From contig JAUHYK010000008.1 of the NCBI GenBank assembly GCA_030426465.1, forward strand, positions 4,756 through 68,755: DNA of 64,000 nt, given 5' to 3'. Origin of the DNA: Alphaproteobacteria bacterium. Its GTDB lineage: Bacteria > Pseudomonadota > Alphaproteobacteria > Caulobacterales > Parvularculaceae. The notes beneath the pieces were generated by a model. The model did not search any database and was not told the origin of the DNA. It was given only the letters and a program-made list of their open reading frames with translations. Made by a program: the position numbers and the translations under genes. Of this stretch, positions 33,006 to 58,541 are shown piece by piece (the stretch's first letter is position 1; each line of letters opens with the position of its first letter).

Positions 33006-33230
33006 TTATTTGTCTTGCTTTTGTGTATTCGGAACATGAACGAGTATGTCGCCGGGTTGGCAGTCTAACACCTCACAGATCTTGTCCAGGGTTTCAAACT
33101 TCACGCCCTTCATGGAGCCTGATTTTAACTTCGATAAATTCGCCTCGGTGGCGCCAATGGCGGTCGCGAGGTCTTTCGATTTCATTTTTCGCAAGGCTAG
33201 CATCACATCCAGCCTGATGACGACCGTCAT
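33006..33230 (-). CDS. Cro/C1-type HTH regulator (YozG-like), module 1
   Basis: RLDVML, ANLSKLKSG, FETLDKICEVLDCQPGDIL. Confidence 0.9.
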   Translation of the reverse strand: MTVVIRLDVMLALRKMKSKDLATAIGATEANLSKLKSGSMKGVKFETLDKICEVLDCQPGDILVHVPNTQKQDK

Positions 33231-33242
33231 GCTCAACGCGCC

Positions 33243-33770
33243 TTAAAGATATTGCTCGGTTTCGGTTTTGTAGCGTTCGGCTTCGATCAGCACAAACGAG
33301 ACAACGAGAAAAACGCTGGCCGTAAAAACCAGCGCCATGTGCTCGGTGTTTATGTTGATATGGGTCCAGAACGGGGCGTCGTGTTCGCCCATAGCCCAGC
33401 GTCGCGCGCCTGATGTGATAATGTCAAAGGTAACAGCGACCATGGTGAACAGCGAGAAGGCGCGCAAATGGCGGGCGGTCCGCCCGTCGACAAATTCACC
33501 CTTATGAAAATGGCGGAACAACCGGTGCAGCCGGTATAGCGCGTAAAGCCATGCGGCGGTTGAAGGAACGCCCACGAGCAGGCCCAATAACCGCGCCCCT
33601 TCGCGCGGCGGCGCTTCAGCGAGCACCAGTGTGTTATCCCAGAAATTATAGCTGCCAAATCCCCAATAGGTGACCGGCATGGCAATGGCGAGGAAGGCGA
33701 TCAGCGGAATCAGCCAGAGGAATGCGAGGCTCGTCCGTTTCAGCCAGACGTGAGTGCTTGACATGGCCAC
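33243..33770 (-). CDS. DUF2975 membrane protein (YoaS-like), module 1
   Basis: About four TM segments; LHRLFRHFHKGEF..RTARHLR; C-terminal EAERYKTETEQYL; precedes HTH. Confidence 0.8.
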   Translation of the reverse strand: MAMSSTHVWLKRTSLAFLWLIPLIAFLAIAMPVTYWGFGSYNFWDNTLVLAEAPPREGARLLGLLVGVPSTAAWLYALYRLHRLFRHFHKGEFVDGRTARHLRAFSLFTMVAVTFDIITSGARRWAMGEHDAPFWTHININTEHMALVFTASVFLVVSFVLIEAERYKTETEQYL

Positions 33771-54410: not shown

Positions 54411-55190
54411 TCACTGGGCGGCGGCGGCCTGTTCCGCAAGCTCGATTGTGTGGTCAAGGAGCTCCCGTCCGCCCATGGGCCCGTGAGACGGGATGACAAT
54501 CTCTGCTTCCGGAAAAGCCTCAGCAACATTCCTGACGGCTTCAGCCCAGTGGCTTACATCGCCATCAGCCGTGTTGCCGAGATTTTTGGATTCGCCGGGC
54601 CGAATGAGGCATCCGCCAAACAGCACTTTCGCCGGTGCGTAATAGACGACGATATTGTCGCGTGTGTGGCCAGCGCCGGGGTAATAAATTTCGTAATGAT
54701 GGTTCTGCGAGTGGGTGGTAATGACTAGCTGCGTCGCCCCTTCCTCCAACGCCAGGCTTTTTTTTGCAGGGCTCAGACCGCGCGCAGGCGCATCTTCGTT
54801 GGAAAACTGGTGCGCGATGGTTTCTACGCCATGAGCATGAAGCGCGCTCATGCCGCCCATCTTGTCGCTATGCGCGTGCGTAACGATGGCTGTCGAAGGC
54901 AGGCCGCCAGTTTCCGATTCGACTAGATTGAGTAGCGCTTCCGTTTCTTCGTCGGTCCATGCGGTGTCTACAAGAATGACACCCTTATCTGTTTGCACAA
55001 CAAGTCCCTGCGACAGGACAAGCCCCCAGCCGCTGACATAATCATAGCTCTTGTGAATCCAGACATTGTCGGCGATTTTTTCCAGCGACGGCGCGGGCAG
55101 CGCTTCGGCGGTTTGGGGCGTTTCTTTATTGGTCGCGCAAGCGGCCAGAGAAACGAGCGCAAGAGCGGCGAGAAAACTTCTAAACATCAA
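54411..55190 (-). CDS. Subclass B1 metallo-beta-lactamase, NDM-like lipoprotein
   Basis: [41 protein letters not shown] give all six B1 zinc ligands; lipobox LAAC. Confidence 0.9.
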
Positions 55191-55795
55191 AAATGCGCTT
55201 TCATCAGTTTACGGAATGCATCCGCGCGGTGGGAGATGTCGTGTTTTTCGTCCGGCTCCATTTCCGCAAAGGTGACGTGATAGCCATTCGGGACGAAGAT
55301 CGGATCATAGCCGAAGCCTTTCTCCCCGCGCGCCGGAAAACAAAGAACGCCTTTGACATCGCCTTCAAAAATTTCCGTGTGCCCGTCTGGCCAGGCGAGG
55401 CAGAGGGCGCAGACAAATTTCGCCGAAAAGTCCTCCGTGCCGCTGTCAAAGAGCGCGGATTCCACCTTTTTCATCGCGGCGTCGAAATCCCGGGGCTCGC
55501 CCGCCCAGCGGGCCGAAAATATCCCGGGTGCGCCGGAGAGCGCCGTTACGGCGAGGCCACTGTCATCGGCCAGCGCCGGCAGGTTTGCGGCCTTCGCGGC
55601 GGCAAGCGCCTTCAATTGGGCGTTCTCAGCGAAGGTCGTTCCGGTCTCTTCAGGGTCTTCAAGGCCAAGTTTTTTTGCGGAGATCGCCTCAATGCCGAGC
55701 GGGGCAAGTAATTCATTGATTTCTTTTACTTTTCCATCGTTGTGAGAAGCGATGACGAGGCGTCCGGGCCCTAATTTCCGCACATTCTCGCCCAT
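55187..55795 (-). CDS. rdgB: dITP/XTP pyrophosphatase (HAM1)
   Basis: [40 protein letters not shown] 55795 (the ORF-track 5' extension is spurious). Confidence 0.96.
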
Positions 55796-55820
55796 GTTTT
55801 TATCCCTTATCGAAAAAAAA

Positions 55821-55863
55821 TTATCGTTTTTCGGCAAAAACCACTTGCATTGTTTTTCGATAA
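55821..55863. promoter_or_regulatory. Two TTATCG-T5-CGATAA-type boxes (55821-55837, 55847-55863) plus half-sites at 55807 and 55872
   Basis: TTATCG-TTTTT-CGGCAA and GCATTG-TTTTT-CGATAA; same consensus as 33795-33811. Confidence 0.65.
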
Positions 55864-55872
55864 GTCTATATC
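55845..55872 (+). promoter_or_regulatory. sigma70-type promoter of the leader-micropeptide-DUF2975-HTH unit
   Basis: TTGCAT-N16-TATATC. Confidence 0.55.
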
Positions 55873-55878
55873 GATAAT

Positions 55879-56163
55879 CAACAAGACGGTGATCAACGCC
55901 GCAAGCACAGGACCCCGGGCTCGGAGAAATACCAGACCCTGGGTGAAAAGAAAAAGGCCGAAAAGACCGGGCGAACCGGCGAAAAGAGCCAAAAAGGAGA
56001 AACCCGGGGAAAGGTCGGCCCCGCCCGAGAAAAAGGGAAAACCGGCCAAACAACAGGGCCCGAAAGGCCCAAATAGCAGCCCGAAAAAAAAGAGCGGCGG
56101 AAAAACCGCCGCTCAAGAAGATCAAAAACGAGCCGCTAACACAGGAAAGAAAAGGAGAAACCC
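55879..56163 (+). ncRNA. Candidate structured, almost U-free leader RNA or ncRNA
   Basis: 11 T and ~117 A in 285 nt; at least five GC stems with A-rich or GAAA-type loops; 14-nt direct repeat AAAAGGAGAAACCC at 55992 and 56150. Confidence 0.6.
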
Positions 56164-56298
56164 ATGCGCTTTGCTAACTCAAACTCAAGTTTCGATAAAT
56201 TTGGCTACTTTGTCAATGGACTGGCCGTATTCCTGACCATTTCTGTCATCGCCGCCGGCTATGTCTCGGCGATCGGCTCCTTCGCTGGGGTGGCGTAA
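56164..56298 (+). CDS. 44-aa single-TM micropeptide [44 protein letters not shown] (not in ORF track)
   Basis: AAGGAG SD, in-frame stop upstream at 56137, TAATG coupling to the next ORF. Confidence 0.7.
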
Positions 56299-56453
56299 TG
56301 TCCAAACTTTTCCACAGAACGGCGGCGGCGGTGTTCGCCGCCTTCGCGGCGGCGAGCCTTTACTCCCTCGCCGTCGCCTCGCCCGCCGAGAGCGGGGCTG
56401 ACGACGCCCGGCAAAGCTGCGAAAAAGCCTTCTGCCTGATCGCCCTGTTCTAG
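56298..56453 (+). CDS. 51-aa secreted micropeptide [51 protein letters not shown] (not in ORF track)
   Basis: TAATG overlap; Sec-type signal peptide; C-terminal CxxxxC. Confidence 0.65.
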   Translation: MSKLFHRTAAAVFAAFAAASLYSLAVASPAESGADDARQSCEKAFCLIALF

Positions 56454-56506
56454 GGGCCGGGAAGGCTTTTTCGATTGCTCATGCTCACCAAGACGGAGAT
56501 TTCAAT

Positions 56507-57019
56507 ATGCGCGCGATAGGCAAAGGATCGCTATCGTCGATTCTCGCAGTCGGCCTTCATGTCACGCGCGTGATCTTGTGGATCATGCTGGGCCTTGTGA
56601 CCCTTGCGCTGATCATTCTGCCCTTTGCGCCGGCTATCGCAGATCTTTTTTCGCACTCCGACGGGATCAATATTGATGGCGTCGTCGATGCTGAAGACTT
56701 CATCAAGGTCTCCTACGCCTTTGTCACAACGGCAGTGATGTTGTTTGTCGTGAACCGCCTCCTGGAAATCCTAAAAGCGCTGCGGTTCGGATCGCCTTTT
56801 GTCAAAGAGAACGCCGACCGGTTTCGCGGCATTGGCTATGCGCTCCTGATGGGAGAGGGCGCCAAATTCGCGTTCGGTTTTTTGTCGCTGATCTTTGACG
56901 CCGATGTTGAGCTCAACATGACGTTCCTCGCCTGGCTCGCAATCATCACCGTGTTCGTGCTTGCGGAAGTGTTCCGCGAAGGCGCGCGCATGAAAGAAGA
57001 ACAGGACCTCACCGTTTAA
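56507..57019 (+). CDS. DUF2975 membrane protein, module 2
   Basis: TM segments, GSPFVKENADRFR, AEVFREGARMKEEQDLTV; TAATG-coupled to HTH. Confidence 0.9.
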   Translation: MRAIGKGSLSSILAVGLHVTRVILWIMLGLVTLALIILPFAPAIADLFSHSDGINIDGVVDAEDFIKVSYAFVTTAVMLFVVNRLLEILKALRFGSPFVKENADRFRGIGYALLMGEGAKFAFGFLSLIFDADVELNMTFLAWLAIITVFVLAEVFREGARMKEEQDLTV

Positions 57020-57243
57020 TGTCGATTTCCGTCAAACTTGATCGGGTTTTGCTCGACCGCGGCATGTCGCTGACGGAGCTCTCCGAACGGGTGGGCGTGA
57101 CGATCGCCAATCTTTCCATTCTCAAAACCGGCAAGGCGAAAGCGATCCGCTTTTCGACGCTTGAAGCTATCTGCAAGGAGCTAGATTGCCAGCCGGGGGA
57201 TATTCTTTTCTTCGACGATGACGGCAAGACAACCGCTGATTAG
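57019..57243 (+). CDS. Cro/C1-type HTH regulator (YozG-like), module 2
   Basis: KLDRVL, TIANLSILKTGKAKAIRFSTL, CQPGDIL. Confidence 0.93.
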   Translation: MSISVKLDRVLLDRGMSLTELSERVGVTIANLSILKTGKAKAIRFSTLEAICKELDCQPGDILFFDDDGKTTAD

Positions 57244-57248
57244 CCAAC

Positions 57249-58541
57249 CTATTGATACGGCGCCGCGGCGGGGTCGCTGGTCGCTTCTTCCGGAACGTCC
57301 TCCGCATGGGGCGCGATCGCTGCGCCGACCTTCCGGCTTCTCCAGACAAAAACAAGCAAGAATATCGCGAGCGTGGTCGACAGGATGAACGGCGCCTGCG
57401 GCGTGTGGGCGTAAAGCCAGAAAGCAATGGCCGGCGAGACGATAAAGCCCGACGCTGTCGCTGCGCCGGCAAGGCCAATGGCGCCGCCCTGTTCATCAGG
57501 CTCGACAGCAAGGGAGGCGGCGGCGGTCACTGCGGGGAACGCCATGCCCGATCCGAGACCGCTCGCCACCATGCCGAGAACCACGGGCCAGAGGTGATCG
57601 GACAGAAGGATTGTCAAATGGCCAGCAATCATCAGCGCCGGGGCGATGCGCATGAGCCGCGCCGGGGAAAGACGCAGACGCTGCACGATCACGAGCTGCG
57701 CAAAGAGCGAGGCCATGGCGCCGGCGGTCAGCCCGATGCTGACATACGCGGGCGCCTCGACGGTTGAATAGCCGAGCCGGTCGATAAAATAAAACGCGAT
57801 AGTCTGGATCGGAATGGCGTTGATGACGGAGAAAGTCAGCGCCGTGATGAGGAAGGCTGTCAGGCGTTCATCACCGAGCTTGACGCGTTTTCCATGCTTG
57901 CGCTGTGTCGGCCCGGTGCGTTCCGGAAGGAAGGCGAACACCGCGAGCATCATCACGAAGCCCAGCGCCGAGGCGGCGAAAAACGGAACGATGCGCCCAA
58001 GAAGCGACGCCGCCGCGCCGAAGCCGGGGCCGAGCATGGCGCCGAAGCCGAACGCTGCAGAAAATCCGGCGATGCCCGCGGTGCGGTCATGCTTTGAGGT
58101 GCGGTCGGCGATATAGGCTTGCGCGGCCGGGGGCCCCGCGGAGCCGACAAGGCCGTAAATGCTGCGCGTCGCCACCAGAAGCAGATAAAGCGGCAGGCCG
58201 GAAAAAGCGCCCGCGAGCCCGAGCATGATGGAGCCGCCGAAAAGCGACATGGACACCGCATAGCCGATCATGCCGACCAGGATAAACGGCTTGCGGCCTC
58301 GCTGGTCGCTCATCCGCCCCCAGATCGGTCCGGTGAAGACCCAGGCGGTGGCCGAGACAGCGAAGATCGCGCCGACCTGAAAATTCGACAGGCCGATTTC
58401 CCGCGCCAGCGGCGGCAGAACTGAAAAGACAATGGTCTGGCCCATGCCGGCGCAGACGGCGCCCACCAAGAGGAGCGCGATGGCGATCCTGCGTTGTGTG
58501 GCGGTGGTCGCGCTCGCGGCCGGCGGCGCTGATGAAGTCAT
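57249..58541 (-). CDS. MFS transporter (DHA1/TetA-like)
   Basis: WGRMSDQRGRK motif A; 12 hydrophobic segments. Confidence 0.92.
   Translation of the reverse strand: MTSSAPPAASATTATQRRIAIALLLVGAVCAGMGQTIVFSVLPPLAREIGLSNFQVGAIFAVSATAWVFTGPIWGRMSDQRGRKPFILVGMIGYAVSMSLFGGSIMLGLAGAFSGLPLYLLLVATRSIYGLVGSAGPPAAQAYIADRTSKHDRTAGIAGFSAAFGFGAMLGPGFGAAASLLGRIVPFFAASALGFVMMLAVFAFLPERTGPTQRKHGKRVKLGDERLTAFLITALTFSVINAIPIQTIAFYFIDRLGYSTVEAPAYVSIGLTAGAMASLFAQLVIVQRLRLSPARLMRIAPALMIAGHLTILLSDHLWPVVLGMVASGLGSGMAFPAVTAAASLAVEPDEQGGAIGLAGAATASGFIVSPAIAFWLYAHTPQAPFILSTTLAIFLLVFVWRSRKVGAAIAPHAEDVPEEATSDPAAAPYQ

Follow-up and report, generated by a model that had tools for sequence, protein, structure and literature searches.

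MgrB, a protein of 47 residues with one helix and a 22-residue periplasmic segment, inhibits PhoQ; two periplasmic Cys residues are essential, its activity is tied to the periplasmic redox state, and its C-terminal Trp is important (PMC8404706, PMC2789325). The gene is controlled by the same PhoQ/PhoP system that its product inhibits, which closes a feedback loop (PMC8404706, PMC2789325). Here we analyze p51, a 51-residue micropeptide for which we regard MgrB as the closest working analogue. Its gene lies in a stretch of 64,000 nucleotides, hereafter the window, from an alphaproteobacterium of the family Parvularculaceae (GenBank assembly GCA_030426465.1, contig JAUHYK010000008.1, positions 4,756 to 68,755 of the forward strand), as the second of four co-oriented genes: p44, p51, DUF2975 and HTH_26. 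Both proteins measure about 50 residues and, as far as the p51 side can be predicted from sequence, share an N-terminal hydrophobic helix, a periplasmic segment of ~22-24 residues, two conserved Cys and a C-terminal aromatic residue. The differences are equally clear. The Cys of MgrB are C28 and C39, whereas p51 has a Cx4C spacing, and p51 carries an AxA site suggesting cleavage. While MgrB acts on a histidine kinase, the presumed partner of p51 is a DUF2975 protein with a Cro/C1 helix-turn-helix (HTH) regulator, and p51 is paired with a second micropeptide, p44. Since there is no Pfam or NCBIfam sequence match, p51 is not a member of the MgrB family.

The last two genes of the operon invite a second comparison. 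The YoaS-YozG pair is named after Bacillus subtilis. Different phyla conserve it, and the operators upstream of it are inverted repeats (bioRxiv 10.64898/2026.09.15.751765). The DUF2975 and HTH_26 genes of the window form such a pair and have a putative inverted-repeat operator upstream. However, the pair was described without micropeptide genes, whereas in this operon it comes after two of these, a leader poor in U and an antisense terminator.

A conserved micropeptide gene

p51 is a real coding gene under purifying selection. Its length alone is uninformative, because the 7-kb stretch around it contains 86 open reading frames (ORFs) of at least 30 residues; conservation was therefore chosen as the test. 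A DNA search of 40 related genomes recovered the locus in most members of the genus. All 20 genus loci that were fetched carry a full-length p51 ORF of 48-54 codons at the equivalent position, and a hidden Markov model of the family found a single full-length copy in 28 of 29 Hyphococcus/Marinicaulis genomes. The sole genus genome without p51 also lacks p44 and the DUF2975 gene. The start of p51 is joined to the preceding gene: its ATG shares one base with the TAA of the 44-codon p44 ORF, and this overlap of stop and start is kept in 20/20 genus loci (TAATG in 19, TGATG in one). The median pairwise ratio of nonsynonymous to synonymous substitution rates (dN/dS) is 0.29 for p51, compared with 0.21 for p44, and third codon positions vary most in p51. 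The original prediction, drawn from the letters of the window, had proposed both the 51-residue ORF and its TAATG coupling to the previous ORF. The first is borne out by the ORF listing, the genus loci, the genome counts and the dN/dS, and the second by the preserved overlap.

Could this conservation instead belong to an RNA or DNA element, with the ORF incidental to it? The DNA here is rich in GC, and chance ORFs crowd both strands, among them one of 51 residues on the opposite strand (56259-56414). Against this, every indel preserves the frame, third positions are the most variable, dN/dS stands at 0.29, and two Cys codons and the position of the stop are invariant across four genera. BLAST often loses the middle of the p51 DNA in more distant genus members, yet the frame stays open, length changes are whole codons, and the ORF persists where the linker DNA is too diverged for BLAST. 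A non-protein explanation can hardly be right.

The family is small and sharply delimited. Ten close p51 relatives were found among 5.8 billion clustered proteins, and two of these bear the label 'hypothetical protein [Hyphococcus sp.]'. When 1.84 billion representatives were searched with a profile, 27 sequences matched, of which ~25 are true p51 relatives, all 44-59 residues long and alike in layout. The loci with organism names, obtained through a search with a p44 alignment, assign the family to Hyphococcus/Marinicaulis and other Parvularculaceae. The nearest named genome is that of Hyphococcus aureus KCTC 62394, a cultured strain with 94% identical DNA across the p51 locus. Apart from a chance 9-residue match, p51 hit no Pfam family at E-values up to 0.1, and neither p51 nor p44 matched a Pfam, NCBIfam (for p51 at E-values up to 1) or PADLOC family. 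Among the operon proteins, the PADLOC defence-system models gave generic HTH matches only, and none for p44, p51 or DUF2975. The two micropeptides stand outside every curated family, their public records are hypothetical proteins, and our literature search found no publication on the pair.

Table 1. Coordinates of the micropeptide operon and associated elements in the window
Feature	Position	Strand	Basis
Putative operator/promoter, TTATCG / CGATAA half-sites	55807..55877	+	Near-identical in 17/20 genus loci by pattern
5' leader, ~285 nt, A-rich, U-poor	55879..56163	+	Base composition
Candidate cis-antisense RNA gene over the p44 Shine-Dalgarno region and start	56084..56216	-	-35 TTGACA 56216-56211, -10 GAAACT 56193-56188, terminator stem 56114-56092 then U8
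p44, tail-anchored membrane micropeptide gene, 44 residues	56164..56298	+	Conserved in all sampled genus genomes and 7 further genera; dN/dS 0.21; stop overlaps p51 start
p51 micropeptide gene	56298..56453	+	ORF call; 51 residues, ATG start, TAG stop
p51 residues 1-27, signal-peptide-like segment (n-region MSKLFHR, Ala-rich h-region, predicted AVA-SP site)	56298..56378	+	Heuristic -3/-1 analysis of 44 homologues; AlphaFold2 helix 3-26
p51 residues 28-40, variable acidic/Ala/Gly/Pro linker (spacer or pro-region)	56379..56417	+	24% mean identity, in-frame indels
p51 residues 41-51, C-terminal 11-mer CEKAFC-LIALF (Cx4C and hydrophobic five-residue tail ending in Phe)	56418..56450	+	Invariant Cys
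DUF2975 (YoaS-like) four-helix membrane protein	56507..57019	+	Pfam PF11188, E 8e-12
YozG-like HTH_26 (Cro/C1) regulator, 74 residues	57019..57243	+	Pfam PF13443, E 2e-21; start overlaps DUF2975 stop at 57019

Anatomy and predicted export of p51

We compared the anatomy of p51 over 44 distinct family sequences. The family follows a four-part layout of a basic N-terminus (M-x-K/R), an Ala-rich apolar stretch, a linker, and two Cys with five residues behind them. The n-region is positively charged, with K3 and R7 in this p51 and Lys or Arg at position 2-3 in nearly all homologues. Including the c-region, the apolar stretch spans ~21-22 residues in most homologues, and nearly all have small residues at -3 and -1 and no Pro at +1 of the putative cleavage site. 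By this home-made rule the site reads AVA-SP here and is of the ATA-AP type in most homologues, resembling an OmpA-type cleavage site, though the length of the stretch also fits a membrane anchor. The linker, 6-23 residues long in the family and ~50 in one form from genus g16, is rich in Ala, Gly, Pro, Glu and Asp.

The C-terminus is the most rigid part of the peptide. C41 and C46 are invariant, and all 44 members have two Cys followed by exactly five residues before the stop codon; the spacing is Cx4C in 43 and Cx3C in one. The tail is hydrophobic ([LFMIG][VILMF]A[FLI]F), with a final Phe in 37/44 and a final Tyr in 1/44. In the Cx3C homologue (CQALC; L073 1117-1260, genus g13) the five-residue tail is retained as GIVIF, so ring size is not absolutely fixed, whereas tail length is. 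That the Cys pair always stands five residues from a free C-terminus suggests that the C-terminus itself is recognized. Residues within the ring differ between species; His, Glu, Asp or Gln is frequent at ring position 1, and Lys occupies position 2 in 21/44 homologues. The predicted mature peptide has a net charge of -3 to +1.

Selection is distributed accordingly along the gene. The ratio of nonsynonymous to synonymous differences (pN/pS) is 0.49 in the n-region and 0.45 in the h/c-region, rises to a nearly neutral 0.82 in the linker, and falls to 0.27, the lowest value in the gene, in the C-terminal 11-mer. This contrast between 0.27 and 0.82 marks the 11-mer as the functional end and the linker as a spacer or pro-region. 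With the family alignment, AlphaFold2 (AF2) draws a helix at 3-26, coil at 27-36 and a low-confidence helix at 37-50, at a mean predicted local distance difference test score (pLDDT) of 66.

Our favored explanation, to which we give a probability of roughly 45%, is that p51 is a Sec-exported, probably signal-peptidase-processed periplasmic peptide that partners p44 and/or DUF2975. Residues 1-27 would direct Sec export, and signal peptidase I would probably cut at AVA-SP, between residues 27 and 28. The product would be a periplasmic peptide of ~24 residues, made of a disposable variable linker and the constrained 11-mer. In an oxidizing periplasm, which the genome's five DsbA-family genes make plausible, the 11-mer could close a six-residue loop through a disulfide between its two Cys. 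p44 and the DUF2975 protein have no Cys and offer no intermolecular disulfide partner within the operon. The hydrophobic tail, with its free aromatic C-terminus, might then attach to the outer face of the inner membrane, where the co-translated, tail-anchored p44, the four-helix DUF2975 or both would be its likely docking partners. Docked p51 would modulate the DUF2975/YozG sensor-repressor pair, which would control the operon that encodes p51, and would serve as a feedback or redox-reporting partner from within that operon. All of these steps, from export and cleavage through the disulfide and the binding partner to any regulatory effect, are ones that we infer, and the choice of partner, which follows from gene linkage only, is a guess. 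The position of p51 in the operon suggests in the same way that it is controlled by the DUF2975/HTH module.

Several observations weigh against this explanation. The AF2 model is helical at 37-50, and Cys at i and i+5 of a helix are ill-placed for a disulfide. The apolar stretch is long enough for a membrane anchor, and the h-region is fairly conserved (60% identity). Four related genera keep p44, DUF2975 and HTH without p51, and outside the genus p44 and p51 overlap only sometimes and often lie 10-100 nt apart. Finally, the description of the YoaS-YozG pair assigns it no function (bioRxiv 10.64898/2026.09.15.751765).

The length and conservation of the apolar stretch bear most directly on whether p51 is cleaved at all. 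It is possible, though unlikely, that the signal is an uncleaved anchor and that p51 is a bitopic (N-in, C-out) inner-membrane micropeptide, membrane-bound like MgrB, in which the linker tethers the Cys loop and tail to p44/DUF2975 and the function is otherwise unchanged. A stretch of 21-22 residues would span the membrane, and AF2 draws residues 3-26 as one continuous helix. The h-region is also conserved beyond what is usual for cleaved signal peptides (AAxAAASLxxLA; A15 is invariant and A17, L21 and L24 are each at least 90% conserved), and its Ala/Ser-rich small-xxx-small spacing suits packing against the p44 helix, which bears a conserved GSFAG motif. However, a plain anchor would not need the small -3/-1 residues and the Ala-Pro or Ser-Pro behind them, which most homologues conserve where the helix ends, the Ala-rich core is only moderately hydrophobic, as is typical of signal peptides, and the g16 form pairs a different N-terminal helix with the same C-terminal module.

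The Cys pair raises a different question. A C-terminal helix of the kind that AF2 draws would hold the Cys in poor positions for a disulfide, and a reduced pair might instead bind a soft metal (Cu(I), Zn, Cd or Hg) or react with oxidants and report envelope chemistry to DUF2975. The invariance of both Cys and the frequent His, Glu, Asp or Gln at ring position 1 would suit such a sensor. We consider it highly improbable: the operon holds no metal-resistance genes, the ring positions vary too much to form a defined coordination sphere, and DsbA homologues are present in the genome. To our knowledge, Cx4C is not a recognized metal-site spacing.

The original prediction had labelled p51 a peptide pheromone or signal. 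The layout on which it built this label (basic N-terminus, Ala-rich core ending near an AxA-type site, a short predicted mature peptide, ~24 residues by our analysis, a Cys pair and a hydrophobic tail) is conserved across homologues, and both Cys, whose conservation it had named as a check, are invariant. Phr, PapR and NprX, Sec-dependent pheromone precursors of Bacillota, begin with a signal peptide, continue with a pro-region that varies and end in the conserved active peptide; their genes lie beside that of an XRE-type regulator. p51 shows the same order, its ring residues vary between species as pherotypes do, and its gene adjoins those of a membrane protein and a regulator under one operator. 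A processed C-terminal peptide might thus leave the cell, be sensed from outside by DUF2975 and be relayed to the HTH protein in quorum sensing or kin signalling. The function, as opposed to the layout, has no positive support, and we find it very doubtful. The Bacillota regulators carry a tetratricopeptide-repeat (TPR) peptide-binding domain and their peptides are re-imported by Opp, whereas the p51 host is Gram-negative, the peptide has a Cys loop and there are no linked maturation or import genes. The p51 operon encodes no TPR protein, and its sole regulator is the 74-residue HTH_26 protein, which has no peptide-binding domain. The conserved operon likewise contains no exporter, maturation protease or outer-membrane route, and the adjacent major facilitator superfamily (MFS) gene is missing from the locus in other genera. 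A hydrophobic tail would tend to retain the peptide at membranes, variation is greatest in the linker and not in the putative active part, and four genera without p51 keep the rest of the module. A cis-acting envelope partner fits better than a diffusible signal, because p51 is single-copy, vertically inherited at a fixed site and, in this genus, translationally coupled to a membrane micropeptide.

Other classes of processed peptide were considered and rejected. Pediocin-box class IIa bacteriocins, some of them Sec-dependent (e.g. enterocin P), have a C-x-K-x-x-C disulfide loop, and their likeness to p51 comes down to this six-residue motif. p51 has no YGNGV, its loop is C-terminal with five residues after it, its mature peptide would be acidic or neutral and not cationic, and there are no linked immunity or ABC transporter genes. 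A lipoprotein processed by signal peptidase II is rejected since p51 has no lipobox and its h-region is not followed by a Cys; in a few homologues Ser20 is exchanged for Cys, where lipobox context is lacking. An AgrD-like thiolactone precursor would call for AgrB, which is absent, and the ring is one residue too large. For CAAX-type processing the Cys stands at -6, not -4, and a PEP-CTERM-type C-terminal sorting signal would need a longer tail and a basic cluster.

Partner genes and control of the operon

The product of the first gene, p44, is polar at its N-terminus and has a single hydrophobic helix at the C-terminal end; its VNGL, GY and FAG residues are invariant. The 20-nt Shine-Dalgarno (SD) region before the gene, gaaaagaaaaggagaaaccc, is near-invariant in the genus. 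The AF2 model of the DUF2975 protein is a bundle of four long helices (pLDDT 78) for which Foldseek found no fold neighbour in the PDB (best E-value 2.2). Its N-terminus, central loop (LRFGSPFVKENADRF) and C-terminus are almost invariant, and the positive-inside rule would place these segments in the cytoplasm. Its first outer loop is variable, with indels. This variable outer loop parallels the variable linker and ring of p51, while the inner faces of DUF2975 and the HTH protein are almost invariant. The HTH_26 regulator, which has a PDB relative in 3tyr, is near-identical even between genera, and its gene adjoins the co-oriented DUF2975 gene in the arrangement of a YoaS-YozG module. The conserved ACGGAG SD belongs to this DUF2975-HTH pair.

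Two side observations concern further DUF2975 copies. A second DUF2975-HTH_26 pair lies in the window at 33006-33770 (-), divergent from a gene for a CPBP/CAAX-type membrane protease, and comparable micropeptide genes are absent upstream of it. Some genus members (G005 and G023, at loci L009 and L020, and also G011, G012 and G013) have a second, diverged DUF2975 paralogue between the first DUF2975 and the HTH gene. These loci give weaker adjacent matches, with the HTH gene ~600 nt further downstream; the operon in the window has one DUF2975 only.

Upstream, a block of half-sites (55807-55890) is 84-92% identical across the genus, above the neighbouring coding DNA, and is probably shared by the micropeptide operon and rdgB, which points the other way. 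A consensus promoter scan called no promoter at the half-sites, so the promoter placed there is an inference only. The leader that follows keeps its composition in every genus locus (A 38-49%, T 2-9%, with 4% here) at lengths of 138-278 nt, and holds several GNRA-capped hairpins before p44. Being U-poor, it allows hardly any start or stop codons. Right after the p51 stop there is a weak hairpin with five T (GGCCGGGAAGGCTTTTT) at 56454-56475, found in the closest relatives only; it might lower read-through into DUF2975-HTH.

The p44 start region appears to carry information on the opposite strand as well. A terminator scan called a GC-rich minus-strand hairpin followed by eight U, and the hairpin with 7-9 U recurs in 16/16 aligned genus loci, where the inner stem shows compensatory changes, and in most other genera too. 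Codons 16-18 of p44 read T-GTC-AA in 20/20 genus loci and, outside the genus, in 16 of 17 loci. These codons are fixed even at their synonymous positions, while other Val codons of p44 vary. On the minus strand T-GTC-AA reads TTGACA, and a GAnnTT hexamer lies 17 nt further on. The simplest explanation of this pattern is a candidate minus-strand RNA of ~95 nt (~56181 to 56084), complementary to the SD and start codon of p44. Because p51 is translationally coupled to p44 in the genus, such an antisense RNA would also gate p51. A permissive Rfam scan of 55000-58000 gave sub-threshold matches only (the best suhB/mmgR-like on the minus strand, at 24.9 bits against a cut-off of 41), and no known RNA family applies.

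These antisense features allow the roles in the operon to be reversed. p44 and p51 might be output, cargo regulated by DUF2975/YozG, with p44 a type I toxin-like, small, hydrophobic, membrane-active peptide with a cis-antisense RNA covering its ribosome-binding site, and p51 its exported partner or antagonist. The conserved antisense terminator and the -35 box fixed at synonymous sites over the p44 start region would suit this arrangement, as would the 1-3 tandem p44 copies in one genus, expected of an effector, and the second DUF2975-HTH pair of the window, which does without micropeptides. We nonetheless judge it distinctly unlikely. The p44 motifs VNGL, GAGY and GSFAG are strongly conserved, which suggests a defined protein contact over general membrane damage; the module is single-copy at a fixed core-genome site; and the net charge of p51 is negative or neutral, unlike that of most membrane-active peptides.

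A more specific version of the input role would make the p51 11-mer a processed signalling ligand, periplasmic or released, that is read by DUF2975, with p44 as co-receptor and the antisense RNA gating production. We regard this combination as quite improbable.

Distribution and significance

Three further genera of Parvularculaceae (g13, g16 and g18) have both p44 and p51 upstream of a DUF2975 that is 50-60% identical to that of the window. Their p51 C-termini read CAERLC-GVVFF, CGDIQC-GIVFF, CPPPAC-RIIVF and CKTRWC-GGAIY, and the g16 form joins its different N-terminal helix to this same C-terminal module. Genera g17, g46, g47 and g48 have 1-3 p44-like genes, no p51-like gene, and a DUF2975 only 35-41% identical. 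Wherever p51 occurs, the gene immediately after it encodes one subtype of DUF2975 (50-100% identical, N-terminus MRAIGKGSL). This distribution points to p51 as an add-on that travels with one DUF2975 subtype and to p44 as the older partner. Since g17, g46, g47 and g48 run p44-DUF2975-HTH without it, p51 is not essential to the module. In several genera the p51 locus sits, single-copy, between rdgB and rlmN, and this fixed site indicates vertically inherited core DNA and not a mobile element.

Two loci of genus g17 (L038 2683-3125 and L039 2501-3194) show 2-3 tandem p44-like genes, ending ISDLPVTI or ISDLPVIV, before DUF2975-HTH and no p51-like gene; in L039 the spacer between the p44-like copies is also repeated. 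Next to the operon in the window, at 54411-55190 (-), lies a gene for a 259-residue protein of metallo-beta-lactamase fold (Pfam Lactamase_B, E 2e-12) with a lipoprotein-like N-terminus (LAAC). It stands between rdgB, whose stop its start overlaps, and a hemN/hemW-like gene.

Annotation tends to miss proteins of up to 50 residues, and partners have been established for only a few of them. The p51 family is strongly constrained and yet has no Pfam or NCBIfam model, and its signature of a signal-like helix, a linker of free length, Cx4C and exactly five hydrophobic residues is diagnostic. Its reach is limited to one marine family, the Parvularculaceae. Judged by its sequence, p51 appears to belong with the micropeptides, exported or membrane-bound, that accompany a sensor-regulator module, and cultured relatives such as Hyphococcus aureus KCTC 62394 make tests feasible. 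Were the 11-mer a ligand read by DUF2975, it would be the first known input of a YoaS-YozG pair and the first Sec-dependent Cys-loop peptide signal described in an alphaproteobacterium. More broadly, if p51 or p44 proves to be a ligand, co-sensor or feedback partner of DUF2975, the micropeptides would provide a first experimental handle on the widespread YoaS-YozG family.

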